From: Candidatus Margulisiibacteriota bacterium
Lineage (GTDB): Bacteria > Margulisbacteria > WOR-1 > O2-12-FULL-45-9
NCBI GenBank assembly: GCA_041658745.1
Contig: JBAZZP010000001.1
Location: 165,434 to 229,433 of the forward strand
Direction: 5' to 3'
Length of the DNA stretch: 64,000 nucleotides
The notes under the pieces are model-generated. The model made no database searches. It saw nothing but the letters and a program-made list of their open reading frames with translations, and had not been told where the DNA came from. Numbering within the stretch: position 1 is the first letter of the stretch; the number at the start of each line of letters is the position of its first letter. The translations under genes and the position numbers were made by a program. This document shows, piece after piece, positions 5,312-64,000 of this stretch.

Positions 5312-5358
5312 CGTTCCCCTTTCTAATAACTATCGCAATGATTACACAGGTTATTCAA

Positions 5359-6462: not shown

Positions 6463-6483
6463 TCTTCTTCTCCAATTAATTAT

Positions 6484-8443: not shown

Positions 8444-8489
8444 GTCGTTATAATTATACAGTAAATAGTCTTAAAATGTTTGGGGAATT

Positions 8490-17839: not shown

Positions 17840-17841
17840 TT

Positions 17842-26364: not shown

Positions 26365-26377
26365 CCTTCTTATATTA

Positions 26378-29421: not shown

Positions 29422-29448
29422 GCAAAATTCCTCCTAAACCAGCTAGAA

Positions 29449-34463: not shown

Positions 34464-34465
34464 AA

Positions 34466-34927: not shown

Positions 34928-34948
34928 TTCTCACTCCTAATTAATCAA

Positions 34949-36064: not shown

Positions 36065-36069
36065 AAAAA

Positions 36070-36076
36070 CCTCCTT
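36070..36076 (-). promoter_or_regulatory. Shine-Dalgarno AAGGAGG for amidotransferase start at 36064
   Basis: Minus-strand AAGGAGGTTTTTATG, with perfect 5-nt spacing. Confidence 0.55.
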
Positions 36077-36189
36077 AAATTCATCTAAAATATATCTATT
36101 TGACAAAATGAGAGAAAATTATTTCGCCAAACAGCAACACCTTAGCTAAACGGGAACGCCTATTCATTCCTAAAATCACCTCCTTCTTC

Positions 36190-37215: not shown

Positions 37216-37249
37216 ATTATTTAAAACAACCTTTTCCAGCTTATAATCA

Positions 37250-39000: not shown

Positions 39001-39005
39001 AATAC

Positions 39006-40115
39006 TTAAAACAAGGCTTGGGCCAGAGTTTCAACAACTTCTTTAATTTGCCCTTCAGACAACTCCGCAAACATGGGTAAAGAAAGGGTCTCATCCTGCA
39101 TGCGCTCTGCTTCAGGAAAATCCCCCTTCCCATAGCCCAAATGTTGATAAACTTCCTGCAAATGCAAACAAAGCGGATAATAGATCATATTCCCAATTTT
39201 GGCTAAAGAAAGTTTTTCCATAATTTTTGCCCGTTCTTTAACTCGAAGGGTATAGTAATTAAAAGAATGTTTTACGTTTTCCCCAACAAAAGGCGCAGAT
39301 ATTTTAGCCTGCAAATTATTCGCATTTAGGCATTGTGCATAAAATGCCGCATTTTTCCTGCGCAGTTCGTTCCATTTATCTAAGTATTTTAATTTTACCC
39401 GTAGAATAGCGGCTTGAAGGGTATCTAACCGGCTATTAAAGCCATTCACCGCATGAAAATACTTTTTCTTTGAGCCATGCTGTCTTAGCATTTTGGCATT
39501 TTCGTAGGCTTTTTCATCGTTCGTTACCATCATTCCCCCATCACCAAAACATCCCAAATTTTTACCCGGGAAAAAGCTTAAGCAGCCAACATTACCAATC
39601 GATCCAACCTTTTTAGCAGCATATTCGGCCCCAAAAGATTGGGCACAATCTTCTACTACCAATAATGAATGTTTCCTGGCAATAGCAACAATTTTATCCA
39701 TTTCTGCCGGATGCCCATATAAATGAACCGGTAAAATGGCTTTTGTTTTTTTAGTTATTTTGCTTTCAACGAGATCTGGATTGAGACAATAGGTTTTAGG
39801 ATCAATATCAACAAAAACCGGTTTTGCTCCCACATTTACAATGGCTTCGGTTGTGGCAATAAAAGTAAAAGGAGTCGTAACAACCTCATCTCCATCGCCC
39901 ACTCCTAAAGATAGGAGGGCAATTTCCAGGGCGTCTGTCCCAGATGATACGCCAACTGCAAATTTCACTCCAAGGTAAGCTGCAATTTCTTCTTCCAGGG
40001 CTTTAACATCTGGCCCCATAATAAAAGCTGCCTTATCAATCACCTGCTGAATTGCTTGGTCAACCTCTTCTTTAATGCTTTGGTATTGCAGTTTTAAATC
40101 AATTAAGGGGATCAT
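39006..40115 (-). CDS. DegT-family aminotransferase (WbpE/WlbC-like)
   Basis: PLP lysine in SFFPGKNLGCFGDGGMM. I place the start at ATG 40115 (MIPLIDLK...), giving an ATGA overlap with the upstream stop. Confidence 0.8.
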   Translation of the reverse strand: MIPLIDLKLQYQSIKEEVDQAIQQVIDKAAFIMGPDVKALEEEIAAYLGVKFAVGVSSGTDALEIALLSLGVGDGDEVVTTPFTFIATTEAIVNVGAKPVFVDIDPKTYCLNPDLVESKITKKTKAILPVHLYGHPAEMDKIVAIARKHSLLVVEDCAQSFGAEYAAKKVGSIGNVGCLSFFPGKNLGCFGDGGMMVTNDEKAYENAKMLRQHGSKKKYFHAVNGFNSRLDTLQAAILRVKLKYLDKWNELRRKNAAFYAQCLNANNLQAKISAPFVGENVKHSFNYYTLRVKERAKIMEKLSLAKIGNMIYYPLCLHLQEVYQHLGYGKGDFPEAERMQDETLSLPMFAELSEGQIKEVVETLAQALF

Positions 40116-40684
40116 ATTGTTTTTACCACTTGCCCTTCCATAGAATATTTTAAGCCGCACTTTGCACATTTACTCTGGTTGCCGGCAAAATCAAGTTTGG
40201 TACCACATTCGCACATCCATCCTTTGATACTGGCCGGATTGCCATAAACCAATGCATAATCAGGAACATTCTTGGTTACAACCGCGCCAGCCCCTACAAA
40301 AGAGTGCTTCCCAACCGTTGTCCCACAGACAATCGTACAATTGGCCCCCAAAGATGCCCCCTCTTTGATCAAAGTTTTATAGTATTTATCCGCAGTCTCT
40401 TGTGGATACTTGCAACGCGGATTAACGATATTGGTAAAGACCATAGATGGGCCACAAAATACATAATCCTCTAGCTCAACTCCACCATAAATGGAGACAT
40501 TATTTTGGATCTTGCAGTGGTTGCCAATTTTTACATGGTTTTGGACAAAAACATTTTGCCCCAGCTTACAACTTATTCCAATTTGAACCCCCGAGGATAT
40601 GTGCGAAAAATGCCAAATTTTTGTCCCTTCGCCAATTTCCACGGGTTCATCAATAATCGCGGTTTCGTGTTTAAAGTATTTCAT
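40112..40684 (-). CDS. hexapeptide N-acetyltransferase (WbpD/WlbB-like) with C-terminal Cys4 ribbon
   Basis: 190 aa. LbH repeats, then CECGTKLDFAGNQSKCAKCG. Confidence 0.8.
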   Translation of the reverse strand: MKYFKHETAIIDEPVEIGEGTKIWHFSHISSGVQIGISCKLGQNVFVQNHVKIGNHCKIQNNVSIYGGVELEDYVFCGPSMVFTNIVNPRCKYPQETADKYYKTLIKEGASLGANCTIVCGTTVGKHSFVGAGAVVTKNVPDYALVYGNPASIKGWMCECGTKLDFAGNQSKCAKCGLKYSMEGQVVKTI

Positions 40685-50454: not shown

Positions 50455-51555
50455 CTATTTGCGATAAAGTTGTCTTTGGTCAGTTGTTATAAAGTCGTCC
50501 TTTGCAAAAACTTCGTTATAAGGAACCGGCAATGGCTTTCCATAGATTTTATTTGCCACAACATTATTGATAAAGTCTCGATCTTCGGCAATTAAACAAG
50601 TATCAACATATTTGCCAAAATACTTATTATTTAAGCCTCTTTCGATTATATCTTTGAGCGGTTCATTAAAGAAATTGCCCATCGAGACATGAATATACGG
50701 ACAAGGCAAGACATCTCCATATTTTGTTATAGAAACCATCCTTTTTACTGCGATACAACCCAAATCCATACCATAAGAAGGAGACAAATGGGTGAAAACA
50801 TTATATTTCTTCTCAAGTTGTCTCATATAGTCCATATCTTCTCTATCAACTAAACAACTATAATTACCTTCCCAGGCGCCCACCGGTTTCGCATAACTGA
50901 CAAATACCCCAACCCCCATCTTGTTATTTAAATACTCAAGAAAATCGATGAATTCTTGCGATCTAACTCGTTGTTTAGTCACCACTGTCTGCACAATAAT
51001 ATTTAGGCCAGCCTTATGAGCCGCATCAATTGCTCGAAGACAACGCTCATGTGATCCGGGTTTTCTCCTAAAGGCATCGTGGTCATCAACCGAAAGGCTG
51101 TCAAGACTCAGTTGAATCTTATCCACTCCAATTTTTTTTAGATGCTTGGCCCGTTCATCGTCGAATAGCCATCCATTTGTATCACAAGAGATATAAAACT
51201 TTTGCGGATCAATGGCTTCAATTATCTCGTCAAAATCAGGAAAAACAAGAGGCTCTCCCCCCGTTAATACAATATTAGCTAAGCCCATTTCATCAGCTTG
51301 CCGAGAGAGCTCTTTGACATCTTTAGGAGTAAAATAACGGCCGTCTTTTCTGCCTTGAAATCTTTTTATACAACAATGCTCACAAGCAAAATTACAGCGA
51401 TAATCGTATTGGAGCTGAATAATGGCAATACTCTCACCCTTTTTTATTTTTTCGTCAAACTTTTGAACTTTATGATATACCAATGGTTTTTCTTTGAGCA
51501 AAGAATTTCGCTTTTCATTCTCCAATTTGCTTAAGTGCGTATCGCCTTCAGACAT
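50455..51555 (-). CDS. radical SAM enzyme (with C-terminal Cys-rich auxiliary region)
   Basis: 366 aa. CNFACEHC (CxxxCxxC) and NIVLTGGEPLV. Additional Cys residues in the C-terminal third (CIAV...CPY...C). Confidence 0.75.
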   Translation of the reverse strand: MSEGDTHLSKLENEKRNSLLKEKPLVYHKVQKFDEKIKKGESIAIIQLQYDYRCNFACEHCCIKRFQGRKDGRYFTPKDVKELSRQADEMGLANIVLTGGEPLVFPDFDEIIEAIDPQKFYISCDTNGWLFDDERAKHLKKIGVDKIQLSLDSLSVDDHDAFRRKPGSHERCLRAIDAAHKAGLNIIVQTVVTKQRVRSQEFIDFLEYLNNKMGVGVFVSYAKPVGAWEGNYSCLVDREDMDYMRQLEKKYNVFTHLSPSYGMDLGCIAVKRMVSITKYGDVLPCPYIHVSMGNFFNEPLKDIIERGLNNKYFGKYVDTCLIAEDRDFINNVVANKIYGKPLPVPYNEVFAKDDFITTDQRQLYRK

Positions 51556-51566
51556 GTTTTTCCTCC

Positions 51567-52697
51567 CTAAATAATCTCTAGCCCATGACTCCTCAGCACA
51601 GCGACATTTTTGATCAGACTATGTTTTTGCTTTATTGTTCTGGCAACTTCATCAGAATATCCACCGGCTATTATAATTATAGCATCCGGTGGGTCCAGGT
51701 TAAGTGTTTCGGGATCTACTATGGGAAGATGAGAGGCCGGAGTATATTTGCCCTGTTTGAAAGGAGCCGAATCAACCACATACCGTACTTGCTTGGATAA
51801 TTCCATCAATGAAATCAGGGCAAAGGCCTGGTGCCCAGCACCCCATATAGCCACTTTTTGAAACTTACTAATGTAATCCGATAAGGCGTTTTTTAGTTTG
51901 CTTTGATGAAGACAAAAATCGGCAAGTTCCACCTTTTTTCGTTTTCTAACAATCATAGAAATAATATAGTCATGCCAGATTTCTTTACTTTCTAAAATAT
52001 CAAAACCATTGATCTTTAAAGCCGTTTCTAAAGTATCCTCGGTAAAATAAGACAAATGATCGGGAATAAATTCAGAAAATAATTTATTGCGCAATATCAT
52101 ATCAAAGTTTGGCACCTCAATTAATCCAATCCCATCTTCAGCCAGATTGTGTTTAATCCCAGCCAAGATTAAGTTTGGATTAGGCAAATGCTCAAAATAA
52201 TTCAACATAATAAATGCCGCAAAAGGACCACCAACAACAGCCTGGTCTTCTTGTTCAATAAAACCAGCGGAAACTTTTAAGCCATTTTTTACACAGAACT
52301 CAACTGACGTATTTAAATTTTCAATGCCATAGGCATCAACCCCACTCTGCTTAATTAAGGACAAATACTCACCTCGACCACACCCAATTTCGATTACCTT
52401 TTTATTTCTAAGTGAATACTTATCAATTATTTCAGCAAATTGTTTGATACGAAAAGCTCGCATATCATCAGAGAAAGCCGCTGCGCGGATTACGTTCTTA
52501 TAATAAGAGACCGGTTCATTAATTAATTGGACTAAACCACAGCCGGAACACTGATACACATCTAAAGCTACCCCTTTATCTCTTTTTAATCCGATTTTAT
52601 CCGGCAAATCTTGCGCCGATTTTGGCATATTCTCATAACGAAGCAGTGGATCTTGCAACAAACTGTGTCCGCAAATTCGACAAAAGTATTTTTTCAT
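51567..52697 (-). CDS. NDP-hexose C-methyltransferase-like (Zn-ribbon + SAM MTase + C-terminal domain)
   Basis: 376 aa. CRICGH...CSGCG, VIEIGCGRGEY (motif I). Same architecture as 26378..27637. Confidence 0.6.
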   Translation of the reverse strand: MKKYFCRICGHSLLQDPLLRYENMPKSAQDLPDKIGLKRDKGVALDVYQCSGCGLVQLINEPVSYYKNVIRAAAFSDDMRAFRIKQFAEIIDKYSLRNKKVIEIGCGRGEYLSLIKQSGVDAYGIENLNTSVEFCVKNGLKVSAGFIEQEDQAVVGGPFAAFIMLNYFEHLPNPNLILAGIKHNLAEDGIGLIEVPNFDMILRNKLFSEFIPDHLSYFTEDTLETALKINGFDILESKEIWHDYIISMIVRKRKKVELADFCLHQSKLKNALSDYISKFQKVAIWGAGHQAFALISLMELSKQVRYVVDSAPFKQGKYTPASHLPIVDPETLNLDPPDAIIIIAGGYSDEVARTIKQKHSLIKNVAVLRSHGLEII

Positions 52698-52701
52698 TTA
52701 A

Positions 52702-53202
52702 TTAAAGATATTTGCCATAGATTTCATCATGCACGGGAATTATGTTTTTGGGACATCCTTTATGCCACAACCACTCATTGTTTTTGGGGGAATCAACATT
52801 GAGACAGTGTTGCTTCTCATCTAAAGGGGTCACCAACTGGCAACCATACAACAAAGAAATAAAATGACCACGATCTTTTCGCTCAAGAATTATTTCATTG
52901 ATCGCCAAAGGCAATGGAGCATATTTCACCTCGACGTTTAATTCGTTTTTGGCAACGGCAGTAATTCTTTCTTTCATAGTTTCTTTATATCTTATAATTC
53001 CACCAGGGATATGCCATCCCGGGGGTCCGTAATTATCGGCTCTCCAGGTTAACAAAGTCTCTCCCTGGGAGTTTTTTATCAACAAATCTACATTAATCAA
53101 TGGCGTTATTCTACTGACAAAATAAAACACCTCTTCCGGCAAACCTGCAGTAGGGTTAACAATGCTTTTTTCTATTTGATTAATTGCATCCCTTATTTTC
53201 AT
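52702..53202 (-). CDS. NUDIX-fold hydrolase-like protein (degenerate Nudix box; GDP-mannose mannosyl hydrolase-like)
   Basis: 166 aa. GGIIRYKETMKERITAVAKNELNV is a partial Nudix signature. Confidence 0.45.
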   Translation of the reverse strand: MKIRDAINQIEKSIVNPTAGLPEEVFYFVSRITPLINVDLLIKNSQGETLLTWRADNYGPPGWHIPGGIIRYKETMKERITAVAKNELNVEVKYAPLPLAINEIILERKDRGHFISLLYGCQLVTPLDEKQHCLNVDSPKNNEWLWHKGCPKNIIPVHDEIYGKYL

Positions 53203-54080
53203 AATAATTCTTCTTTATTGATGATTTGTTTATTTGCACTATACCAATTATATAAATCCAAAATAGCCTCATCAAGCGGAGTAAACCTAAACTTTTCTAA
53301 TTCCTTTAAAAGCTGCATATTATTTCCACTATATTCGCGGCAAGGGCTATCAGAATTATCGATTATTTCGATATCTTTTCCAGCTATTTTCTTAACAATT
53401 TTTGCCAATTCAGCCGCTTTGATCTCCAGGCCAGAACAAACATTATATACCTGTTGCAAAGGAGAATTATTAACAAACCATCTTACAATCGCAACCAAAT
53501 CGTTAATATATAAGTAATCGTAATAAGTATTTTGCCTTATCATTATTGGAAGATCAAATAACGCTGAGCAACAAGCCCTTGAAATAAACCGATAGCGCCA
53601 ATCCTCGTATTTACCAAAGACAGAAAACACCCTGAGGTTATAAATATTTTTGCTTTGCAGAGCATGCTTTGTCATAACATATTTAGAAAAACCATACTGC
53701 TCCGTAGGCACATGTTGATCATAATAACCTTCATCCATTTTTAACCGCCAATTCTCTCTCCCAAATTCTGCCCCCGAACCAAAATACAACAACTTTCCAT
53801 AATGATCATTACATCGCGCGACATTAAAAAACATTCTTAAGTTGTTTTCTAATACTTTAGCAGGATCTTTGATGGAATATTTGGGTGCCGGATCATGGGT
53901 AGCTGCATGAATAACAACGTCAAATCGGCCATTTTTTATGAGGTCTAAAACCTTATTGGAATCTAAAAGATCAAGCTCAGAATGATTGCAGGCGATTACC
54001 TCAAAATCATGACATAATTGCTCAAATAGATTACGAGCAATAAAACCTTTTCCTCCAGTAATTAATAATTTCTTCGCCAT
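53199..54080 (-). CDS. SDR-family NAD(P)-dependent sugar epimerase/reductase
   Basis: 293 aa. LLITGGKGFIARNL, YGFSKYVMT (YxxxK). Confidence 0.75.
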   Translation of the reverse strand: MAKKLLITGGKGFIARNLFEQLCHDFEVIACNHSELDLLDSNKVLDLIKNGRFDVVIHAATHDPAPKYSIKDPAKVLENNLRMFFNVARCNDHYGKLLYFGSGAEFGRENWRLKMDEGYYDQHVPTEQYGFSKYVMTKHALQSKNIYNLRVFSVFGKYEDWRYRFISRACCSALFDLPIMIRQNTYYDYLYINDLVAIVRWFVNNSPLQQVYNVCSGLEIKAAELAKIVKKIAGKDIEIIDNSDSPCREYSGNNMQLLKELEKFRFTPLDEAILDLYNWYSANKQIINKEELL

Positions 54081-54095
54081 TGGTCTCCTAGCCCC

Positions 54096-55178
54096 TTAAT
54101 GCTTAGCAATTGGGGGATGTCCCTTCAAATACTCCCCAACCAAATGCATATCACACTCATCAGAACATTTTAACCCTTTTGACAAATTAAAGTGAGCTTC
54201 CCTAAATGCTTTATATTTATCTCCATTCCAAATAGCATATAATGACTCTTCTTTTGCATTCCCCAAAATGATTTCATTATTATAATCTTCCATGCACATT
54301 ACCACTTCGGCATTAGATTTTACGGTCATAGACATCCACGGATGCTTACAGATTTCTGACCAGTGGACCGATTTTGTTCCGTGGTAGTTCTGCCGATACC
54401 ATTGCTGATCTTCACTTTTTAAATACAAATAGACATCCAAATCTTTAAAGGCAGCTTTTAGTTTTTGATATTCTTCTTCTTGCCAAGAGTTGTTTAGATC
54501 CAACATTGTAATAACAATTCTGGTGGTAAGCCCGCGCTGTTTTTTGAGATTTATAAGTTCTAATATTTTATTATAGCTTTGGGTAAAATTGGACTGATCA
54601 CCCCTAATCTCCTTATGCCTTGCGTCATCAACGCTTTCGATCGAATACTTGATATAACTCAAACCATTTTCAAACATTCTAACTGTAGTAGCAAGATCTA
54701 TATTCGCAGGATTACAACTAAAGTATGAATGAAAACCCCTCTCAGTTAGCAATTTAACATATTCGCTCATGTTTTTATCAAGCAATGGATCGCCATAACC
54801 ATGCAGTTGAATTACTTTAGGAATAATATATAAGAAAAAATTATTCTCGCTCTGCTCTTCTTTTTCAATGTTATATTGTTCTTTAACAAATTTTTCCCAG
54901 GTTGACCATTCATCCTTTGACCAGGGACGCAATTGATCAATAATATGAATAAAGGTGTCTTTATCAATTGTTTCAACTTTTCTCGTCATCCGAGTGGTTC
55001 TGGGACACATTTTACATTTCATATTACAGGCATTCGTAGTCTCTATGTTATAAACAACCGGCTCTTTTCTACGCATACCTTCAAATTGCCCGACAATGAA
55101 ATCATGATCAAAGGTTTCCCCATTCAACATCCTGTTCACCAAATCATGTGATTGCATATAAAAGTGAATATCAAACAT
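54096..55178 (-). CDS. radical SAM enzyme (second; Cys-rich C-terminus)
   Basis: 360 aa. CNMKCKMC (CxxxCxxC); C-terminal CMEDYN...C..C cluster. Confidence 0.75.
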   Translation of the reverse strand: MFDIHFYMQSHDLVNRMLNGETFDHDFIVGQFEGMRRKEPVVYNIETTNACNMKCKMCPRTTRMTRKVETIDKDTFIHIIDQLRPWSKDEWSTWEKFVKEQYNIEKEEQSENNFFLYIIPKVIQLHGYGDPLLDKNMSEYVKLLTERGFHSYFSCNPANIDLATTVRMFENGLSYIKYSIESVDDARHKEIRGDQSNFTQSYNKILELINLKKQRGLTTRIVITMLDLNNSWQEEEYQKLKAAFKDLDVYLYLKSEDQQWYRQNYHGTKSVHWSEICKHPWMSMTVKSNAEVVMCMEDYNNEIILGNAKEESLYAIWNGDKYKAFREAHFNLSKGLKCSDECDMHLVGEYLKGHPPIAKH

Positions 55179-55202
55179 TTTATACCTCCAAATATAGATA
55201 GA

Positions 55203-56171
55203 TTACTTTGTTTTAAAAGCCAATACTTTTAAGGCCAAGGAAAGCGCATTAATCCCATCTTCCAGTGAACAAAGTGGGAGCTCTTTTCCATTAACGATAG
55301 AAATAAAATGGCGCATTTCTTCAACAAACAGACTATTTCTTTCAAATTCATGGGAAGGAGAAAAATGCTCCCAATTTAATAATTTGTTCCTATAAATTGA
55401 AAGTTTACCATCCGTATTATTCCAACCGATTGTCCCCTCGGTGCCAACAATCTCTAAAGTGTGTGTGGGTGGCTTCTGCAAATAATTGAGTTGTAATACC
55501 CCTAAGGCTCCATTTGGAAAACGTAAAATAGCTTCCGCAGTATCTTCCACTGCAATGCCCAAATCCCCTCTGTTTTCAGCACAAGCCCACTCTACCGTTG
55601 GTTTACCAAGCAACCAATTTAAATAATCAAATGGATGGCACAGGGTTAAAACAACTCCCCCTCCCAAATCGGGCCTAGCGGCATAACTACTTTTATAATC
55701 TTCCCAGGGGTGCATATCCGGCAAATATTCTCCCCAACGCGCACAAATTGATACTGGCCGACCTATTTCTCCATTTAAAATTAGTTGGGAAGCAATTTTT
55801 AGTGTGGGATGAAACCTAAATTGAAAACCAACTAAGAGTTTTCCCTGGCCCTGCAGCAAAGCAGCTTGCAATTTATCGATCTTTTCAAGTGAATTAGAAA
55901 TAGGTTTCTCTAGCAAAATATGGCATCCAGCTTTGGCCGCCGGAATTGCGACATCAAGGTGCAATGCCGATGGATTGGAGATAATAAATGCATCTGGATT
56001 AAGCGCCAAGGCCGCTTCGATACTTGTTACTACCGGATATTGTTGCAACTCTTCGGCAGGTAATGAGCTCAAGTTGTTGCGCAGCAAAACAATGTCACTT
56101 TCTCCAAGCACAACCAAGTTTTTTAAATGGCGCCGACCAATTGACCCAAGTCCAGCAATAACATATTTCAT
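55203..56171 (-). CDS. Gfo/Idh/MocA family oxidoreductase
   Basis: 322 aa. VIAGLGSIGRRH, LLEKPIS. Confidence 0.8.
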   Translation of the reverse strand: MKYVIAGLGSIGRRHLKNLVVLGESDIVLLRNNLSSLPAEELQQYPVVTSIEAALALNPDAFIISNPSALHLDVAIPAAKAGCHILLEKPISNSLEKIDKLQAALLQGQGKLLVGFQFRFHPTLKIASQLILNGEIGRPVSICARWGEYLPDMHPWEDYKSSYAARPDLGGGVVLTLCHPFDYLNWLLGKPTVEWACAENRGDLGIAVEDTAEAILRFPNGALGVLQLNYLQKPPTHTLEIVGTEGTIGWNNTDGKLSIYRNKLLNWEHFSPSHEFERNSLFVEEMRHFISIVNGKELPLCSLEDGINALSLALKVLAFKTK

Positions 56172-56174
56172 ACT

Positions 56175-57983
56175 TTATTCTTCTATGGGGGGAATAATCA
56201 TGTTTGATAAAAATTCCTGGCGATCAAGGAAAGGCCAAAGGTCCTCCAATGGTTTTGAGATCATAGTCCCATCCGGTTTTTGCATGGTCATCATACTGGG
56301 AGCCCTAGGCTCGTCAGGAGGATTAATAACCTCACAAACAATTGGTCCCGGCATATTTATAACTTCCCTTATTTTTTCGGTTAATCCATTTTGATCGCTA
56401 ATTTTTAGAGTGGGCAAGCCGTATGCTTCGGCTATCTTGCAGATATCGGGCAAACCTAAACCACTACCATTATCTGCCCCAGTTAATCTCCCAAAATAGC
56501 GTAGCTGAGATGTCCTAATAGAGGAATAACCTTGATTGTTAAGTACAAAGATCTTAATCGGTAATTTGAGGCGAGCAATGGTGGCAAGTTCCTGAATATT
56601 AAATTGGATGCCACCATCGGCCTCAATACAAATTGTCCGTTTTCCACCACTAGCCAGACAAGCTCCAATACTCGCTGGCAAACCATTCCCCATCGAACCG
56701 AGGGCGGTGGTATTTAAAACCCTTTGCCCCCTTTTCGCTCTAAAAGCCAGTAGAAAGATCTCAATTCCTGCCCCCGAACTGGTAGGGATGATAATATCAT
56801 CTGAATTAAGTTCCTCCGAAAGAACATCAGTAAAAGCATAGACGCTAACCAATTTTTCTTGTAAATATTTAGGCAAAACCACTGGATACTTCGCCTTCCA
56901 CTCCCGACATCTAGCCATCCATCCATCTCGCTTATTGGGCAATAGCTTGTCGCATTGAAAAAGCATTTCTTGAATAACAGCCTTGGCATCAAAACAAATA
57001 GGAATATCAATTTTAGTCTGCATTTTACTTATTTCTGTCTGGTCAATATCCACCATAACTTTTTTTGCGGCCCTGGCAAACTTTTCATGAGAATAACCGG
57101 TGATCACAGTATCTAAACGAGCCCCAAGGCTAATTAACAAATCTGAATTTTGCAGTGCAAAATTTGCCCCACGGGGAGCAACGGGCCCGGGCCGGCCAAC
57201 CAGCAAAGGATGAGTGTCGGGCAATAAATCCAGCGCCGGCCAAGTCAGTAAAACTGGGATTTGCAATCGCTCGACCAAAGACAAAACATCATTGATCGCA
57301 TTAGATAATCGCACCCCATTTCCAATCAATAAGATTGGCCGTACCGACTCATTTAGCAATTTGAATATTTTTGCAACAGAAGCTTTCATTTCTTTTTCTT
57401 GCTCTTCATTTACCAATTCGATTTGATCAAACAAAGACAACGAATCAGTTTCAATTATGGCCGCTTGAACATCGAGCGGAATATCAAGCCAAACCGGGCC
57501 AGGTCGGCCAGTTTGTGCAAGATAAATCGCTTTTTCAAGATGATAACGGATAGAATTAGGATCCATAATGGTAACCGAGTATTTTGTGATCGATTTAATA
57601 ATTGTAACAATATCCAGCTCTTGTACCCCATTTTGCCGGACACCCAGATTGCCAATAAGGTCAGAACACTTCACTTGTCCCGAAATAAACAAACAAGGAG
57701 TAGAATCTAACCACGCCCCTGCTACTCCAGTAATTGCATTGGTTCCGCCGGGGCCGGTTGTCACCATCGCAACTCCTAAAGAATTATTAACAATTCTAGA
57801 ATACGTTTCCGCGGCCATGGCACTAGCTTGCTCATGCTGATTACAGATAAATTCAATGCCCTTCTGGTGGCCAATAGAATCGTTGAGATGCATTGCTCCT
57901 CCGCCTGGAACCATAAAAACATGCTTAACCCCATGATCCATAAGAAACTGCGCAATGTAATCAGAAAGTTTTATTTTCATCAA
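56175..57983 (-). CDS. TPP-dependent acetolactate-synthase-like enzyme (YerE-like candidate)
   Basis: 602 aa. All three AHAS domains are visible: N-terminal VKHVFMVPGGGAMHL...TTGPGGTN, a central domain, and a C-terminal TPP domain. Confidence 0.8.
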   Translation of the reverse strand: MMKIKLSDYIAQFLMDHGVKHVFMVPGGGAMHLNDSIGHQKGIEFICNQHEQASAMAAETYSRIVNNSLGVAMVTTGPGGTNAITGVAGAWLDSTPCLFISGQVKCSDLIGNLGVRQNGVQELDIVTIIKSITKYSVTIMDPNSIRYHLEKAIYLAQTGRPGPVWLDIPLDVQAAIIETDSLSLFDQIELVNEEQEKEMKASVAKIFKLLNESVRPILLIGNGVRLSNAINDVLSLVERLQIPVLLTWPALDLLPDTHPLLVGRPGPVAPRGANFALQNSDLLISLGARLDTVITGYSHEKFARAAKKVMVDIDQTEISKMQTKIDIPICFDAKAVIQEMLFQCDKLLPNKRDGWMARCREWKAKYPVVLPKYLQEKLVSVYAFTDVLSEELNSDDIIIPTSSGAGIEIFLLAFRAKRGQRVLNTTALGSMGNGLPASIGACLASGGKRTICIEADGGIQFNIQELATIARLKLPIKIFVLNNQGYSSIRTSQLRYFGRLTGADNGSGLGLPDICKIAEAYGLPTLKISDQNGLTEKIREVINMPGPIVCEVINPPDEPRAPSMMTMQKPDGTMISKPLEDLWPFLDRQEFLSNMIIPPIEE

Positions 57984-58484
57984 TTAGCCTTTTACAGACA
58001 GTAACAAATCTAATAATTCTCTTACTGCACCAGCCCCGCCAGAACGTTTGGTAACGATGTTAGATACTTTGACTATAGTTGAGTGAGCATCTTTTGGACA
58101 GACAGACAAGCCAACTATTTTTAGCGCCGGCAGATCAATAATATCATCACCTATAAAACAAATTTCGGATAAACCAAAATTATATTTTTTAGCATATTCG
58201 ATAACCGCCTTAGCCTTATCATGGCATCCCTTATAAACATCATTTATCTTCAACTTTTTTGCGTAACGAGAGACAATTGCCATCCCGGAAGGACTACTTT
58301 CACCAGAAACTAAACCAATTTTAATCCCCGCCTTCTGGGCCAGGGAAATTCCCGTCCTATCGGCAAAACAAAATCTCTTCATCTCTAAGCTATCAGAATC
58401 CAACCAAAAAGACCCATCAGTTAAAACACCATCAACGTCCATTAAAACTGCTTTTATTCTTTTTATTTCTTTTCGCACTATCAA
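57984..58484 (-). CDS. HAD-superfamily KdsC-family phosphatase (Kdo-8-P / nonulosonate-9-P phosphatase-like)
   Basis: 166 aa. LMDVDGVLTDG (DxDG), FIGDDIIDLP. Confidence 0.8.
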   Translation of the reverse strand: MIVRKEIKRIKAVLMDVDGVLTDGSFWLDSDSLEMKRFCFADRTGISLAQKAGIKIGLVSGESSPSGMAIVSRYAKKLKINDVYKGCHDKAKAVIEYAKKYNFGLSEICFIGDDIIDLPALKIVGLSVCPKDAHSTIVKVSNIVTKRSGGAGAVRELLDLLLSVKG

Positions 58485-58506
58485 GATGGCCTCCTAAATA
58501 ATAATT

Positions 58507-59376
58507 TTATACATTTCTAAGTCTTTTAATAATAGGCTCTTCACATGCCAATATTTTTTTGACTCCATTCCCCATAGATGTTTCAACCAGACGAATATCC
58601 CTAATTAATCGATTTAAGCCATTTGGTTCTAGAGAGGCGGCATGATCAGATCCCCACATAGCTCGATCCAAAGTAATATGGCGTTCTATAACACACGCTC
58701 CCATCGCCCGAGCAGCAACTGAAGAGGGTAAGCCCGTTTCGTGACCAGAATATCCAACCAAAACCTTATATCTGTTTTTTAAAAAAGGGATCAAACGCAA
58801 ATTGAGATCTTCGTATCGAGCGGGATAAGCACTGCAACAATGCAGCAAAATTAAATTGTCCTTTTGTAAAACTTCAACCGCATGATCCAGTTGTTCTAAA
58901 GATGACATGCCGGTGGATAATATTACTGTTTTACCCTGTTTTCTTACGTGTTTTAGCAAAACATCATCCGTTAATTTTGCGGCCGGGATCTTAATGCAAG
59001 GGGTGTTATATTGAGCAATAAAATCAACTGAATCAATATCCCACACCGAAACCAACCATGTAATACCAATTTCTTTGCAATACTTATTGATTTCATCATA
59101 CTCTTTCTTGCCAAATTCTATTTTATTGCGGTAATCGAAATAGGTCATATTTCCCCAGGGGGTCTCTCGCAGAATATCTCGTTGACTTAAAGGTACGCAT
59201 AATTCTGGATTGCGTTTTTGAAATTTAACGGCATTACAGCCCGCATCAGCAGCGACCGCAATCAGCTTCTTCGCAATATCTATCTCCCCATTGTGATTTA
59301 TCCCTATCTCCGCAATAAAATACGAAGGGCAATCATCACCAACTTGAACATTACCAATCTCTAAATTACTTGTCAT
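58507..59376 (-). CDS. third NeuB-family synthase paralog (short form, no SAF domain)
   Basis: 289 aa. YFIAEIGINHNGE, KFQKR, KIPAAK, GYSGHETG. Confidence 0.8.
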   Translation of the reverse strand: MTSNLEIGNVQVGDDCPSYFIAEIGINHNGEIDIAKKLIAVAADAGCNAVKFQKRNPELCVPLSQRDILRETPWGNMTYFDYRNKIEFGKKEYDEINKYCKEIGITWLVSVWDIDSVDFIAQYNTPCIKIPAAKLTDDVLLKHVRKQGKTVILSTGMSSLEQLDHAVEVLQKDNLILLHCCSAYPARYEDLNLRLIPFLKNRYKVLVGYSGHETGLPSSVAARAMGACVIERHITLDRAMWGSDHAASLEPNGLNRLIRDIRLVETSMGNGVKKILACEEPIIKRLRNV

Positions 59377-59396
59377 GCTTCCCCTCCTATAATTTG

Positions 59397-60734
59397 TTAA
59401 GCGAACTTTTTAATCGTACTTATAATAAAGTCAATCATTTTTCCTGTCATCCCGGGATAAACCCCAACCCAAAAAGTTTGATTCATTACAATATCGGTAT
59501 TTATTAATTTTCCAACAACACGAAAGCCCTTTCTTTTTTTTCTCATTTCATCAAAACAAGGATGTTTTATCATATTGCCAGCAAAGAGCATGCGGGTTTG
59601 TATCCCTTTTGATTCAAGATATTGCACAATTTGATCCCGCGTGTAGCCAGAGGATTTCTTTACCGTCAGCAAAAAACCAAACCAGCTCGGATCAGAATAT
59701 TCCGCAATCTCAGGCAAAACAAAAACATCTTGCATTTGATTGAGGCCAGATCGCAATATTTGCCAGTTTTTTTTCCTAGCTTCAACAAAAGCAGGCAGTT
59801 TTTCTAATTGAGCGCAACCAATGGCTGCCTGCAGATCGGTAGCTTTTAAATTGTATCCAAAATGCGAATAAACATATTTATGATCATAACCAAAAGGAAG
59901 TTCACCAAATTGCTGGGTAAAACGTCGTCCACAGCTATTATCTATTCCGGATGGACACCAACAGTCTCTCCCCCAATCACGCAGAGAGTTAACTATTTTA
60001 TTTAGCTGCCTATCATTAGTATAAACGGCACCACCTTCTCCCATCGTCATATGGTGAGGAGGATAAAAGCTAGAAGTTGCAACGTGGCCAAAGGTCCCAG
60101 TTTGATGCCAGCTCCCCTTATACTTATACCTAGATCCCAAAGAATCACAATTATCTTCAATTAACCAGAGGTTATGTTTATCACAAAAGTTTTTTACCGC
60201 ACTAATATCGAAAGGATTTCCCAAAGTATGGGCCAAGATAACCGCCTTGGTTTTCTTGGAAAGGGCCTTCTTTAATTGGGAACAATCAATATTATATGAG
60301 GGAAGAGAAACATCTACAAAGACCGGAATTGCTCCATATTGTACAATGGGAGCGATGGTGGTGGGGAAACCAGCCGCAACAGTTATGACTTCATCCCCTT
60401 TCTTTATCCTTTTATTTCCCAACTTAGGCGAAGTTAAAGCCATAAAAGCCAAAAGGTTAGCAGAAGAACCAGAATTTACAAGCGAACAGAACTTTATCCC
60501 CAAATACGCAGCAAATTCTTTTTCAAATCTTTCAGCATAACGACCTGTGGTCAACCAAAAATCCAGAGAAGCATCAATCAAATTGGCAATTTCTTTCTCA
60601 TCAAAAACCCTGCCGGCATATGAAATACGATCACCTGGAACAAATTCATGCTGTGTAGACAAATGTTTAAATTCATAATGGTTGATGGCTGCTTGGATAG
60701 CTTTTTTTCTTAGTACTTTATCTTTACTTTTCAT
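59397..60734 (-). CDS. rfbH: CDP-4-keto-6-deoxyglucose 3-dehydrase (E1; RfbH/DdhC-like PMP + [2Fe-2S] enzyme)
   Basis: 445 aa, DegT fold, but the PLP-lysine position reads SFYPPHHMTMGEGG (His in place of Lys). It also has DCWCPSGIDNSCG (C-x-C-x7-C iron-sulfur motif). Confidence 0.8.
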   Translation of the reverse strand: MKSKDKVLRKKAIQAAINHYEFKHLSTQHEFVPGDRISYAGRVFDEKEIANLIDASLDFWLTTGRYAERFEKEFAAYLGIKFCSLVNSGSSANLLAFMALTSPKLGNKRIKKGDEVITVAAGFPTTIAPIVQYGAIPVFVDVSLPSYNIDCSQLKKALSKKTKAVILAHTLGNPFDISAVKNFCDKHNLWLIEDNCDSLGSRYKYKGSWHQTGTFGHVATSSFYPPHHMTMGEGGAVYTNDRQLNKIVNSLRDWGRDCWCPSGIDNSCGRRFTQQFGELPFGYDHKYVYSHFGYNLKATDLQAAIGCAQLEKLPAFVEARKKNWQILRSGLNQMQDVFVLPEIAEYSDPSWFGFLLTVKKSSGYTRDQIVQYLESKGIQTRMLFAGNMIKHPCFDEMRKKRKGFRVVGKLINTDIVMNQTFWVGVYPGMTGKMIDFIISTIKKFA

Positions 60735-60773
60735 AATTTAATACCGGTTTACCCTATATGGATAACCCATAAA

Positions 60774-61652
60774 CTACCTCCAATATAATATTACTATTAC
60801 AGCAAACAGCCAGCCAAACATCGCACCTATTAATGGGATATCTGACAGCATCAAGTTTTCTGCGCTGCCACCCTCATCTTTTTTATAAACCAAATATAGA
60901 TAACGGAACAATCCAAAAATGACAAAAGGAACCGTATATATCAGGTTAGAAGTATTAAATTTTTGCACCGTCTCAGAGGATAATGTATAGAGAGAATAGG
61001 TTAGGATTATTGCCGCAGTAACCACAGAGATCAATTGGTCAAGATATTGAAGGTTATATTCTTGAAAAACAAGGCGATGAATAACCGCATTTTCACCTAA
61101 AACCAAAATTTCGTTCCGGCGTTTACAAAAAACAATAAACAGAGCCAGAAGAAAGGCACAGACAAGAAACCAAGGAGTAAAAACAACCCCAATTACTTCT
61201 ACCCCGGCAACCGCACGAATGACATAGCCAGCTGCAATTATAAAAGCATCAAGAATAACTATTTTTTTCAAACCAAAAGTATAACCAAGCATTATTATGA
61301 TATATGCCACAACAAGATAACAAAAGTTAACATTTAATTGATAAGAAAAAAACAAGGAAAAAGGCAAAGCCACAATAACAAACAATTTAGCGATAATCGG
61401 AGACAAGGCTCCACTAGCAAGCGGACGCAGCTTCTTAGAAGAATGCAGTTTATCATTTTGCATATCTTTCAAATCATTAATTAAATAAATACAACTGGTT
61501 ACAGCACAAAACAAGAGAAAGGCATAAACAGTATTGATGAATAAAGGCAGATTAGATAATTTTAAAGCAAATAAAATCCCGGCAAAAATGATTAGGTTTT
61601 TGAGCCATTGCTTGGGGCGTAGGGATATCCACAAATAATAAAACTGCTTCAT
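60774..61652 (-). CDS. UbiA-family prenyl-phosphate phosphoribosyltransferase (DPPR-synthase-like)
   Basis: 292 aa, about 8 TM segments. N-terminal LRPKQWLKNLIIFAG and the aspartate motif INDLKDMQNDK (NDxxDxxxD). Confidence 0.65.
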   Translation of the reverse strand: MKQFYYLWISLRPKQWLKNLIIFAGILFALKLSNLPLFINTVYAFLLFCAVTSCIYLINDLKDMQNDKLHSSKKLRPLASGALSPIIAKLFVIVALPFSLFFSYQLNVNFCYLVVAYIIIMLGYTFGLKKIVILDAFIIAAGYVIRAVAGVEVIGVVFTPWFLVCAFLLALFIVFCKRRNEILVLGENAVIHRLVFQEYNLQYLDQLISVVTAAIILTYSLYTLSSETVQKFNTSNLIYTVPFVIFGLFRYLYLVYKKDEGGSAENLMLSDIPLIGAMFGWLFAVIVILYWR

Positions 61653-62707
61653 TGCATGTAATCCTTAATTTGACCGATACAAACCTCTCGCAAATCCTGC
61701 CTATTTTTGTATGCTAGTGTCCAGTCCATCACTTTTTGCAAGGCCATATCAAGATCCCACTGCGGTTTCCAACCTAGTTCTTTTTTGGCCTTGGCAATAT
61801 TTAAACGCAAATAATGGGTTTCGTGCGGATGTTTTCCACGGTCAATAGCATACGAAGCTCCCTGCCCCCATTTTTGGCAGAGTCGCTTTACAATCCAATC
61901 AACCGTCTTAGCATCACTTTTTTCCGGACCAAAGTTCCAGGCACCTGCATATTTCTCCCCATCAAGACAAAGTTTTTGCGCCAATAATAGATAGCCCGTT
62001 AATGGTTCTAACACATGCTGCCAGGGACGAACCGCTTTGGGACAGCGAACCATAATTTTTTCGTTTTTCAAAATCGCCCGCACAAAATCGGGAATTAAGC
62101 GATCGGCCGCCCAATCTCCACCCCCAATAACGTTACCGGCTCGAGCCGTAGCCACTGCCACCCTAGGGCTCAAAAAGGAACGGCGATAAGCCGCGGTAAC
62201 TATTTCACTGCAAGCCTTACTGCTGGAATACGGATCATAACCACCCAGTGGATCCCCCTCCAAATAACCCTGCCCCCTACTCCCTATCCCCTTCACCTCG
62301 TAACATTTATCCGTAGTAATATTGACAATGGCTTTTACCGCTTTGCAGCTGCGGGCCGCCTCTAACAAATTAACGGTTCCAAGAACATTGATTGTGTAGG
62401 TTTCAACCGGATTCTTGTATGATTCTCTAACCAGCGGCTGGGCAGCCATATGGATTATGATTTCTGGTTTTGCTTTGTGTATTACTTTTATTAGGTTGTC
62501 GCTATCTCGAATATCACCGATATGTGAATCAACCAGTTGGTCGACCCGACAGAGCTTAAAAAGGCTTGGGCTAGTGGGCGGATTCAAGGCATACCCCGTA
62601 ACTTCAGCTCCCAAATAATTTAGATAAATTGAGAGCCAGGTGCCTTTAAATCCGGTCTGTCCGGTAATAAATACCTTGCGGCCCTTCCAAAAACTACTTT
62701 TTTTCAA
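61649..62707 (-). CDS. rfbG: CDP-glucose 4,6-dehydratase
   Basis: 352 aa. FWKGRKVFITGQTGFKGTWL, HMAAQPLV, YSSSKACSE, RAGNVIGGGDWAADRLIPD. Near-collinear with enterobacterial RfbG. Confidence 0.9.
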   Translation of the reverse strand: MKKSSFWKGRKVFITGQTGFKGTWLSIYLNYLGAEVTGYALNPPTSPSLFKLCRVDQLVDSHIGDIRDSDNLIKVIHKAKPEIIIHMAAQPLVRESYKNPVETYTINVLGTVNLLEAARSCKAVKAIVNITTDKCYEVKGIGSRGQGYLEGDPLGGYDPYSSSKACSEIVTAAYRRSFLSPRVAVATARAGNVIGGGDWAADRLIPDFVRAILKNEKIMVRCPKAVRPWQHVLEPLTGYLLLAQKLCLDGEKYAGAWNFGPEKSDAKTVDWIVKRLCQKWGQGASYAIDRGKHPHETHYLRLNIAKAKKELGWKPQWDLDMALQKVMDWTLAYKNRQDLREVCIGQIKDYMQ

Positions 62708-63947
62708 TACGAGACCTCTTTACATATTTCTTAATACTATTATCTGGGCTTTTCCCAATAAAGGTATAGTCCGAACGTAAATATTGTTCAATTTCTGGAT
62801 GATCATAAGCCACATCATAAAAAACAATAGTTCCACTCGGGGAATTTTTAATAAATGCAATTAATTGATTGAAATCCTTTTTAAACATAAGCTCCTGGGG
62901 ACCTGGCATATTTACAGGATAAGACTTGCCTGCCGCTAAAGAATATATTCCTGAGTGCATTGAAATAATCAACACCATATTAATTGATCTATAATCCTTT
63001 GAAATAAAATTAACATTCTTGATTATTGCCGAATTAGGCTGGATAACGCTAAGCTTCCAACGCTGATAAATGACATTATATGCAAAGGGCAAGGAGGAAA
63101 CGCAAAACAACAGGGAAAAAATAAGCCCAAAACTAATGCAATAGTTAAACAGTTGATAGATTGAGTTTTTATTTTGTTTTAGATATTCATTTAGCTGATC
63201 TAGATAAATGATTAGCAATAATATGGCCGGATAGGAAACAGTCACCAGAACAAAATCATGACTTCGTCCTTGATAGTATACAAATATCCCAAATCCCACA
63301 AAAGACACAAATTGAATCAACATGCTTTTTTCATTTGCTTGACGATCGATTAATGCTTTTATGCCTAGAAAAGCACCAATTAAATAAAGAAAATAAACAA
63401 TTATCCAAGGATGAAAGAACTTCATTGGGATCATCTTATAACCATAAGAATAATATGCCTGCTGGTAAATAAAATTAGACGCATAATTGGGAATGTTCCC
63501 GCTAAATGAAAAAATATACAGTGAATATAATGTTAATACGCCTATAAAAAAAGCCAGAGCAACCATAAGATGCTTCAACACAAGCCAATAGTTTCGAGTT
63601 AGCAAAGATTGATAAATCAATAGTATTATCCAAGATAATAAAACTACAATTCCGGTATCAAAATTCCAGAATAGGGCTATTGTTGCAACAAAAAAAGATA
63701 GATAATAAATTAATTTGCTTTTACTTGATATATACCTGCCTGCCAAATAACAAATACAAGCAGGGAAAAAGAACCTTATAGGAAAATACTGAAAATAGCA
63801 GTCATGATTGTTCGAATATATACGTGAAAATAGATAGCACCAAAAAACAATTACCACATATCCAGCAGAGGCGATAAGCTTATCATTAATATATTCTTTG
63901 ATAAACAAGTAAAGAAAGACCAACGACAACAACATTATAATAGACAT
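62694..63947 (-). CDS. polytopic integral membrane protein (candidate GT-C glycosyltransferase or polymerase)
   Basis: 417 aa, about 11 hydrophobic segments. TAATG overlap with an upstream partial gene at the window edge. Confidence 0.35.
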   Translation of the reverse strand: MSIIMLLSLVFLYLFIKEYINDKLIASAGYVVIVFWCYLFSRIYSNNHDCYFQYFPIRFFFPACICYLAGRYISSKSKLIYYLSFFVATIALFWNFDTGIVVLLSWIILLIYQSLLTRNYWLVLKHLMVALAFFIGVLTLYSLYIFSFSGNIPNYASNFIYQQAYYSYGYKMIPMKFFHPWIIVYFLYLIGAFLGIKALIDRQANEKSMLIQFVSFVGFGIFVYYQGRSHDFVLVTVSYPAILLLIIYLDQLNEYLKQNKNSIYQLFNYCISFGLIFSLLFCVSSLPFAYNVIYQRWKLSVIQPNSAIIKNVNFISKDYRSINMVLIISMHSGIYSLAAGKSYPVNMPGPQELMFKKDFNQLIAFIKNSPSGTIVFYDVAYDHPEIEQYLRSDYTFIGKSPDNSIKKYVKRSRIEKK

Positions 63948-64000
63948 TACAATGGTGAATTTAAGGACAGATAAGCCAATAACCCAAAATATCGGCTTTA

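Follow-up and report, generated by a model that had tools for sequence, protein, structure and literature searches.

A six-gene interval (positions 56175-62707) lies near the end of a 64,000-nucleotide stretch of a Candidatus Margulisiibacteriota genome (contig JBAZZP010000001.1; this whole 64-kb stretch is called the window below). It holds two genes of the cytidine diphosphate (CDP)-4-keto-3,6-dideoxyglucose pathway, a NeuB-family synthase, a phosphatase and a thiamine diphosphate (ThDP) enzyme. On balance, we think it somewhat probable that the product of this cassette is a CDP-activated 3,6-dideoxyhexose bearing a long, hydroxylated chain at C4, the donor of which comes from the NeuB-family synthase and the phosphatase. 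An earlier note on this DNA had proposed a yersiniose-like sugar with a two-carbon branch derived from pyruvate. A sugar-branching enzyme of the YerE type, acting on the E1 product and distinct from acetohydroxyacid synthase (AHAS), is retained from that proposal, based on family cutoffs, profile comparison and residue Val293. The two-carbon branch is not, given the NeuB, aldolase or dehydratase neighbours of the enzyme and a published scheme for related sugars (PMC9306805). The main features are:

61649-62707, minus strand: CDP-glucose 4,6-dehydratase (RfbG/DdhB); TIGR02622, 478 bits, cutoff 278
59397-60734, minus strand: E1/RfbH/DdhC, pyridoxamine 5'-phosphate and iron-sulfur CDP-4-keto-6-deoxyglucose 3-dehydrase; NF011936, 730 bits, cutoff 423
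58507-59376, minus strand: short NeuB-family phosphoenolpyruvate (PEP)-condensing synthase, 289 aa, no SAF domain; Pfam NeuB, E = 5e-79
57984-58484, minus strand: KdsC-like phosphatase of the C0 haloacid dehalogenase (HAD) type; TIGR01670, 135 bits, cutoff 107
56175-57983, minus strand: JanthE/YerE-like ThDP carboligase, 602 aa; Pfam TPP_enzyme_N, TPP_enzyme_M and TPP_enzyme_C

The window is a single minus-strand glycan cluster throughout, with a G + C content of ~0.37. The intergenic gaps along the cassette measure -14 to +43 bp, so the cassette reads as one operon, of which the interval is the core (12-14 genes in all). Downstream of the thiamine enzyme follow a Gfo/Idh/MocA oxidoreductase, a radical S-adenosylmethionine (SAM)/SPASM enzyme and a short-chain dehydrogenase/reductase (SDR), then a NUDIX-like protein, a C-methyltransferase-like protein and a second radical SAM/SPASM enzyme, and finally a metallo-beta-lactamase-fold gene and a GT2 gene. 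The earlier note had placed the Gfo/Idh/MocA, SDR and radical SAM genes between the pathway genes and the thiamine enzyme; they are found at 53199-56171, outside the interval. The genes truly in between had been overlooked, namely a UbiA-type gene (60774-61652), the short NeuB (58507-59376) and the KdsC-like HAD phosphatase (57984-58484). With the NeuB and the phosphatase recognized, the interpretation changes. Domains were surveyed with Pfam in every listed minus-strand open reading frame (ORF) of at least 120 aa except 476-1222. A Logan contig (L001), with genes identical to those of the window, reaches 10 kb beyond the window end, giving ~74 kb of covered sequence. The NCBI records for cassette proteins are MFA5839257 (the short NeuB), MFA5839258 and MFA5839260; the last is identical to the RfbG protein and is named CDP-glucose 4,6-dehydratase.

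Both dehydratases named in the earlier note were recognized far above their family cutoffs. Among solved structures, E1 matched the Yersinia E1 (3bcx/3bb8) with 522 bits and ColD with 200. His227, in the motif SFYPPHHMT, was aligned with the Yersinia enzyme's own histidine (SFYPAHH), at the position of the aminotransferase lysine. Cys196 and the C-x-C-x7-C motif (Cys258-x-Cys260-x7-Cys268) align with the Yersinia E1 cysteines. As had been noted before, the window holds no glucose-1-phosphate cytidylyltransferase. The suggested search upstream located this gene, RfbF, on L001, 0.7-1.5 kb past the window end (coordinate 64000) and two genes upstream of RfbG (TIGR02623, 325 bits, cutoff 300). Equivalents of DdhA (RfbF), DdhB (RfbG) and DdhC (E1) are thus linked in the operon of the thiamine enzyme.

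The thiamine enzyme is full length, as had been described, with all three domains of the AHAS fold. It scored under every AHAS cutoff among the 25 families listed, the best being TIGR00118 with 388 bits against a cutoff of 538. No IlvN/IlvH or IlvC/ilvD partner was detected in the Pfam survey of the window ORFs, in agreement with the earlier observation that ilvN and ilvC are lacking. Its closest solved relative was JanthE from Janthinobacterium sp. HH01 (8rph, 8rpi, 8rpj), a YerE-like carboligase that accepts ketones as substrates and has a broad donor range (PMC12188165, PMC12247030). As a single sequence it matched JanthE 8rph over the full length with 390 bits, and AHAS with 263. The C-terminal extension aligns with JanthE and falls outside the alignments with 5ahk and AHAS. 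The 5ahk protein is probably the YerE of Pseudomonas protegens. A family profile built from 23 orthologues gave 528 bits for JanthE, 362 for 5ahk, 340 for E. coli AHAS I and 337 for plant AHAS, so the margin over AHAS was large for JanthE (190 bits) and small for 5ahk.

Residue-level comparison pointed in the same direction. In AHAS, the arginine of the RFDDR motif holds the acceptor keto acid by its carboxylate; at this position the window enzyme has Val293. The residue is Pro in JanthE, and Arg in both 5ahk and E. coli AHAS I. Across 120 homologues the residue was V, A, T, G, M or S, and Arg in none. Given this role of the arginine, Val293 would fit an acceptor without a carboxylate. The catalytic glutamate (E51) and the D-G...N-N motif (A455-D456-G457, N482-N483) are retained, and the ThDP motif opens with a non-canonical residue in both enzymes, ADG in that of the window and CDG in JanthE. 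The JanthE pocket residues Y268, P293 and K567 correspond to V268, V293 and S563. These smaller residues would be compatible with a bulkier substrate, and are no evidence on their own. By sequence, the thiamine enzyme falls outside biosynthetic AHAS and belongs with the JanthE/YerE-like carboligases, because it lies below the cutoffs, has no small subunit nearby, lacks the RFDDR arginine and is closer to JanthE in the profile search.

In a rough neighbour-joining tree, JanthE was the sister of the whole family, and the basal members came from loci lacking NeuB. Two of the basal relatives (L078:8986-11559 and L085:5911-8475) had thiamine-enzyme ORFs of ~855 aa from stop to stop. Pfam recognized no domain in the ~250-aa N-terminal stretch, which is either genuine or an artefact of reading from stop to stop. 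Upstream of both ORFs there were three radical SAM genes and a GT9 gene.

The NeuB and phosphatase genes lie directly upstream of the thiamine enzyme. The short NeuB was below the equivalog cutoffs (TIGR03569, 253 bits, cutoff 400; TIGR03586, 203 bits, cutoff 340). Its best solved relative was 6ncs (290 aa, 149 bits), with GYSGH and ERH aligned to GYSDH and EKH; the histidines of these motifs are metal-binding. The phosphatase, with its DVDG motif at residues 16-19, was under both the KdsC equivalog (127 bits, cutoff 208) and the equivalog for the 9-phosphate phosphatase of 2-keto-3-deoxynononic acid (KDN; 129 bits, cutoff 180). We propose the short NeuB as the maker of a 3-deoxy-2-ulosonate phosphate and the phosphatase as the enzyme that dephosphorylates it. 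The window also has a canonical NeuB (36190-37215, 498 bits), within a legionaminic-acid-type block at 28-40 kb that includes NeuC, LegB and a cytidylyltransferase. With this block complete, the making of ordinary nonulosonic acids can do without the short NeuB.

The association of the two enzymes extends well beyond this genome. Orthologues of the thiamine enzyme with 60-76% identity are spread over many phyla. Our lookup set comprised eight further distinct loci, from WOR-1/Saganbacteria, Elusimicrobia, a Bacteroidales metagenome-assembled genome, Deltaproteobacteria, Syntrophales, Nostoc, Kiritimatiellia and one unassigned contig. In each of the eight, as in the window, a NeuB-family gene adjoined the thiamine enzyme. 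It occurred in three forms: a short NeuB with a HAD phosphatase, a short NeuB with a small SPASM protein, and a NeuB-SAF-AP_endonuc_2 fusion. The window has a 12-gene order in common with WOR-1 and Elusimicrobia (RfbF, x, RfbG, NeuB, HAD, thiamine enzyme, Gfo, radical SAM, SDR, NUDIX, C-methyltransferase, radical SAM, E1). No CMP-ulosonate synthetase (CTP_transf_3) was present in the called-gene lists of the lookup loci, so the NeuB product does not undergo the usual activation.

A scan of genome contigs with the thiamine enzyme alone returned three loci, and a metagenome scan 80 more, with 47-66% identity. Thirty of the metagenome loci were well flanked (at least 2.5 kb on both sides). A NeuB-family gene lay within 10 kb of the thiamine enzyme in 22 of these, and in 17 of the 20 with at least 52% identity. 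Among the 19 long-flank loci having both NeuB and the thiamine enzyme, E1 was found in 13, and at least one of RfbF, RfbG and RfbH in 17. The glycan setting was kept in more than 80 loci.

Where NeuB is lacking, other enzymes that form 2-keto-3-deoxy acids occupy its position by the thiamine enzyme. An HMGL-like aldolase lies between E1 and the thiamine enzyme in L074 and L083, an HpcH/HpaI aldolase is present in L089, and an altronate/galactarate dehydratase follows the thiamine enzyme directly in L078, L079 and L085. The pairing with NeuB, together with its exchange for an aldolase or a dehydratase, matches the published scheme (PMC9306805) and makes a longer hydroxylated donor more likely.

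A frequent extra partner is AP_endonuc_2, a xylose-isomerase-like TIM barrel, encoded directly after the thiamine enzyme (L017:8492-9370, L036:11769-12647, L039:11796-12668) or fused to NeuB-SAF (L006:11853-14105, L010:7688-9985). The window cassette has none. It might isomerise or dehydrate the substrate or product of NeuB. Stand-alone AP_endonuc_2 was considered as a replacement for NeuB in L025, L038 and L039, and was rejected, because many loci with NeuB and HAD also have this gene behind the thiamine enzyme. A WOR-1 locus (L002:19018-21729) had E1 followed by an SDR and a split transketolase, with separate genes for the N-terminal half and the pyrimidine/C-terminal half. In the literature, transketolases too have been proposed to branch keto sugars.

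From these data we propose a pathway in four steps. Going by family membership, RfbF would form CDP-glucose, RfbG would convert it to CDP-4-keto-6-deoxyglucose, and E1 would remove the 3-hydroxyl to give CDP-4-keto-3,6-dideoxyglucose. The short NeuB would join PEP to an aldose phosphate, after which the KdsC-like phosphatase would free a 3-deoxy-2-ulosonic acid, an alpha-keto acid probably of C7-C9 length. The thiamine enzyme would then decarboxylate this acid and add the acyl anion to the C4 ketone, leaving a tertiary alcohol and an acyl branch. This third step is suggested by homology, by the gene neighbourhood and by the published chemistry of ErwE, MMAR_2332 and MyGE. More speculatively, the SDR, the Gfo/Idh/MocA protein or both might reduce the branch ketone, and the C-methyltransferase-like, NUDIX-like and two radical SAM/SPASM proteins might tailor the product further. 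The NeuB and phosphatase pair would take the part that a pyruvate aldolase has in the published clusters for erwiniose, caryophyllose and gastriose.

We put forward, with less confidence and at somewhat under even chances, that a NeuB-type synthase was recruited as the maker of a C7-C9 donor. The product could then be an undescribed C4-branched 3,6-dideoxy surface sugar of 12-14 carbons, remodelled by the two radical SAM/SPASM enzymes and the C-methyltransferase. Its carriers would include Margulisiibacteriota, Saganbacteria/WOR-1, Elusimicrobia, Bacteroidales, Syntrophales, Nostoc and others.

Several points weigh against a long-chain branch on the E1 product. What the sequences give directly are family memberships, and from these we infer the donor, its length and the acceptor. 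A reductase of the E3/AscD/DdhD type (Fer2/FAD_binding_6/NAD_binding_1), which the earlier note had missed in the window and advised looking for upstream, was detected neither in the surveyed ORFs of the window nor in the 10 kb upstream, ~74 kb altogether. Its absence weakens the pathway assignment without refuting it, because E1 homologues such as SpnQ run on general cellular reductases. In some relatives (L013, L017), a ~240-aa reductase of the ferredoxin-NADP reductase type is encoded directly behind E1. No gene of the CDP pathway was present within 10 kb in the well-flanked, NeuB-less L025, L038 and L039, or in L027 and L091, two of the 19 long-flank loci with NeuB. The Kiritimatiellia locus L010 is without RfbF, RfbG and RfbH; an insertion sequence element lies upstream. 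The 293-aa SDR could also be a C4 ketoreductase that consumes the acceptor.

The placement of the thiamine enzyme is subject to further points of this kind. Pairwise identity was 32-35% throughout (34% for JanthE, 34.5% for 5ahk, 32% for E. coli AHAS I). Since identity did not discriminate, bit score, coverage and profile search were used instead. The comparison and the tree were made without the physiologically defined YpYerE, ErwE and MMAR_2332, and the physiological substrates of JanthE have not been established (PMC12188165).

The thiamine enzyme might be a true YerE that takes pyruvate and adds a two-carbon acetyl branch, giving a yersiniose-type sugar, with NeuB and the phosphatase serving an unrelated sugar of the KDN or 3-deoxy-D-manno-octulosonic acid (Kdo) type. 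We regard this as unlikely, though not far-fetched. E1, RfbG and RfbF do share the operon of the thiamine enzyme, and a NeuB-type synthase with a C0-HAD phosphatase forms a known stand-alone KDN module in Bacteroides. Pyruvate is also among the donors of JanthE and MyGE (PMC12188165, PMC9306805), but ErwE refuses it outright (PMC9306805). Moreover, the NeuB-family gene was the most constant neighbour across phyla and gene orders, including the NeuB-SAF-AP_endonuc_2 fusions; aldolases or a dehydratase stand in for it in NeuB-less relatives; and the lookup loci listed no CMP-ulosonate synthetase among their called genes. Rather less probable still are two independent products. In that case an SDR acting as C4 reductase would yield an ordinary sugar of the abequose, paratose or ascarylose type, and NeuB, the phosphatase and the thiamine enzyme would make another compound, for example a decarboxylated 2-deoxy-aldose or a substituent derived from a keto acid. 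The remote kinship of the SDR to NDP-4-keto-sugar reductases is in line with this, as are L010, L025, L038 and L039, which have the thiamine enzyme, Gfo, adh_short and a methyltransferase, with none of RfbF, RfbG and RfbH within 10 kb. Such absence is weak evidence, because glycan clusters here exceed 64 kb. It is opposed by the presence of E1 in 13 and of at least one CDP-pathway gene in 17 of the 19 long-flank loci, in several gene orders. The closest characterised relative, in addition, is a ketone-accepting carboligase and no simple decarboxylase (PMC12188165).

The neighbouring enzymes all form alpha-keto acids, and this by itself does not tell a donor from an acceptor. With AHAS-like chemistry, for which the fold would be suited, pyruvate could be the donor and the 3-deoxy-2-ulosonic acid the acceptor, giving a C2-branched ulosonic acid. 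We hold this to be very improbable. The RFDDR arginine, which in AHAS binds the acceptor carboxylate, is Val293 in the window and Arg in none of the 120 homologues, and the linkage to E1, RfbG and RfbF would be left unexplained. In the published relatives, such acids are donors (PMC9306805). Finally, a genuine biosynthetic acetolactate synthase large subunit that lies in a glycan cluster by chance deserves hardly any credence. The top NCBIfam score did belong to such a model (TIGR00118), but its 388 bits are short of the cutoff of 538, and the other AHAS models were likewise below theirs. IlvN, IlvH and IlvC were not found among the surveyed window ORFs, the RFDDR arginine is replaced, the family profile favours JanthE by 190 bits, and more than 80 loci keep the glycan setting. 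The long hydroxylated branch made from a NeuB product remains the reading that we prefer.

The remaining genes of the cassette and its surroundings are:

55203-56171, minus strand: Gfo/Idh/MocA oxidoreductase, tailoring; Pfam
54096-55178, minus strand: radical SAM/SPASM enzyme 1, tailoring; Pfam Radical_SAM and SPASM, CNMKCKMC from residue 51
53199-54080, minus strand: extended SDR, 293 aa; Pfam Epimerase and RmlD_sub_bind
52702-53202, minus strand: NUDIX-like protein; Pfam NUDIX, E = 2e-5
51567-52697, minus strand: sugar C-methyltransferase-like protein (Methyltransf_13/23/14); Pfam
50455-51555, minus strand: radical SAM/SPASM enzyme 2, tailoring; Pfam, CNFACEHC from residue 54
60774-61652, minus strand: UbiA-family homologue of decaprenyl-phosphate phosphoribosyltransferase; NF008977, 258 bits, cutoff 234; Pfam UbiA
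62694-64000, minus strand: polytopic membrane protein, 3' part; complete on L001:8032-10014 (660 aa), visibly multi-transmembrane

Most of the tailoring genes recur in relatives. Orthologues of the Gfo/Idh/MocA gene were found behind the thiamine enzyme in L002, L004, L007, L010 and L011. Radical SAM/SPASM enzyme 1 was kept in WOR-1, Elusimicrobia and Bacteroidales loci; the NUDIX-like protein, the C-methyltransferase-like protein and radical SAM/SPASM enzyme 2 were kept in the WOR-1 and Elusimicrobia cassettes. A NUDIX and C-methyltransferase-type (Methyltransf_13/14) pair occurs twice in the window, in two different sugar modules (25912-27637 and 51567-53202). The 293-aa SDR gave only remote matches in the PDB, with at most 40 bits, to NDP-4-keto-sugar reductases, and these were uninformative. 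It is a candidate reductase of the side-chain ketone, with a role like that of YerF.

The UbiA-type gene, wedged between RfbG and E1 and above its equivalog cutoff, does not occur in the cassette as found in WOR-1 and Elusimicrobia. It interrupts the cassette and probably has a separate function concerned with lipid-linked pentoses. Nearby there were a GtrA-like protein and three large proteins without a recognized family (62694-64000; L001:4418-4756, 4753-7159 and 8032-10014). This UbiA/GtrA-like gene set recalls the way in which mycobacteria make lipid-linked arabinofuranose or ribofuranose donors, something one would not expect in Margulisiibacteriota. The gene for the 660-aa membrane protein sits between RfbF, beyond the window, and RfbG. 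It had no match in Pfam or NCBIfam and is possibly outside the sugar pathway.

Elsewhere in the same glycan cluster, we found a second thiamine system, related to pyruvate dehydrogenase (PDH) E1, with an alpha (7466-8443) and a beta (6484-7482) subunit on the minus strand. The alpha subunit was below its cutoff, and the beta subunit ~0.1 bit short of the NF006667 cutoff. The flanks (4142-6462 and 8490-9503) encode a DegT aminotransferase, a class I/II aminotransferase and a formyltransferase-like protein. Pairs of the alpha-ketoacid-dehydrogenase type are among the sugar C-branching enzymes of antibiotic pathways (PMC12247030), and by analogy this pair could be a second branching or acyl-forming route.

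The legionaminic/nonulosonic-acid-type block (28378-40169, minus strand) is complete. It consists of a member of the GDP-mannose 4,6-dehydratase family, a CBS-nucleotidyltransferase, a PglD-like acetyltransferase, a NeuC-type hydrolysing 2-epimerase, DegT, LegB, a WbuX amidotransferase, the canonical NeuB (498 bits) and a cytidylyltransferase. A second non-canonical NeuB (339 aa, 37981-39000) reached 227 bits, below the cutoff. About 9 kb upstream of RfbG, shortly past the high-coordinate end of the window and among glycan genes, a 312-aa protein (L001:966-1901) matched TIGR00445 (MraY) with 302 bits (cutoff 192). It may be an initiating phosphotransferase of the MraY type instead of a cell-wall enzyme. 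Two adjacent paralogues of 556 and 565 aa (16169-19539, minus strand) had C-terminal halves weakly similar to CDP-glycerol glycerophosphotransferase/2-epimerase and N-terminal halves without a family.

Caryophyllose, erwiniose and yersiniose are rare, branched, higher-carbon surface antigens with structures that are difficult to solve. The sequence rule given in 2022 combines the E1 pathway, a YerE-like enzyme and an adjoining enzyme that forms a keto acid. The window suggests a further version, in which NeuB and a phosphatase would provide the donor; it is apparently much more common, mostly in uncultured phyla. Should our proposal be correct, the known donor range of YerE-like enzymes would be wider, there would be a new and widespread class of higher-carbon sugars, and biocatalysis would gain thiamine enzymes for which polyhydroxylated C7-C9 keto acids are likely substrates. 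The labels "acetolactate synthase" and "N-acetylneuraminate synthase" would then be misleading in such clusters. The cassette, widespread in uncultured phyla as it is, should be of interest for glycobiology and for biocatalysis with thiamine enzymes. A 2024 in-silico study reportedly predicts more than 200 YerE-like clusters (as cited in PMC12247030). In the searchable full text on NeuB or neuraminate synthase, branched sugars and thiamine, a scope that does not extend to that survey, we found no donor-forming enzyme of the NeuB type; the link to NeuB may already be published.

Compared with known systems, the thiamine enzyme shares with the AHAS large subunit (IlvB/IlvG/IlvI) the three-domain fold, the catalytic glutamate E51 and the D-G...N-N thiamine/Mg motif. 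Unlike AHAS, it is below the curated cutoffs, has Val at the RFDDR arginine and a C-terminal extension, and lies in a glycan operon with no regulatory subunit nearby. It resembles JanthE in its full-length alignment, including the C-terminal extension, and in the non-canonical first residue of the ThDP motif; it differs in the pocket (V268, V293, S563) and overall (34% identity). To 5ahk, probably a YerE and the only structure of that type for comparison, it was barely closer than to AHAS (362 versus 340 bits). With the yersiniose A pathway of Yersinia pseudotuberculosis (DdhA-D, YerE, YerF), the cassette has in common the DdhA, DdhB and DdhC equivalents together with an AHAS-fold thiamine enzyme in one operon, as well as the predicted acceptor, CDP-4-keto-3,6-dideoxyglucose. 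It departs from that pathway in that DdhD/E3 was not found in ~74 kb and in that the donor is probably not pyruvate.

The NeuB and phosphatase pair has its counterpart in the modules for Kdo-8-phosphate (with KdsC) and for KDN-9-phosphate in Bacteroides thetaiotaomicron. In each, a PEP-condensing TIM barrel stands beside a phosphatase of the KdsC family, and a free 3-deoxy-2-ulosonic acid is the expected product. Unlike these modules, the window has the thiamine enzyme as the next gene and no cytidylyltransferase there; its synthase is without SAF and under the NeuB/PseI cutoffs, and its phosphatase is under the cutoffs for both KdsC and KDN-9-phosphate phosphatase.

BphI, which serves as a reference for one of the aldolases below, is an HMGL-type enzyme. 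The closest parallel in gene content is with the clusters of ErwE (erwiniose, Pectobacterium atrosepticum), MMAR_2332 (caryophyllose, Mycobacterium marinum) and MyGE (gastriose, M. gastri), which have been brought together in a "unifying scheme" (PMC9306805). In experiments, these three enzymes used hydroxylated C4-C8 alpha-keto acids as donors, and an aldolase gene lies beside each; ErwI is similar to the aldolase BphI, and MMAR_2331 is in the aldolase/citrate lyase family (PMC9306805). The operon has matching elements: genes for CDP-4-keto-3,6-dideoxyglucose apart from DdhD/E3, a YerE-like enzyme, a candidate NAD(P)H reductase and, next to the thiamine enzyme, predicted makers of a hydroxylated keto acid. 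The comparison with ErwE, MMAR_2332 and MyGE is one of gene layout. The SDR and Gfo proteins may take the part of the YerF/ErwF reductases; the SDR has only remote relatives in the PDB. Unlike these clusters, the window has a NeuB-family synthase and a KdsC-like phosphatase as the predicted makers of the donor in place of a pyruvate aldolase, and it adds two radical SAM/SPASM proteins, a C-methyltransferase-like protein, a NUDIX-like protein and the Gfo/Idh/MocA protein. The basal relatives L074, L083 and L089 share the layout of the ErwE, MMAR_2332 and MyGE clusters exactly, with an HMGL-like or an HpcH/HpaI aldolase. Judged by family, these aldolases of the NeuB-less loci match the pattern of ErwI and MMAR_2331.

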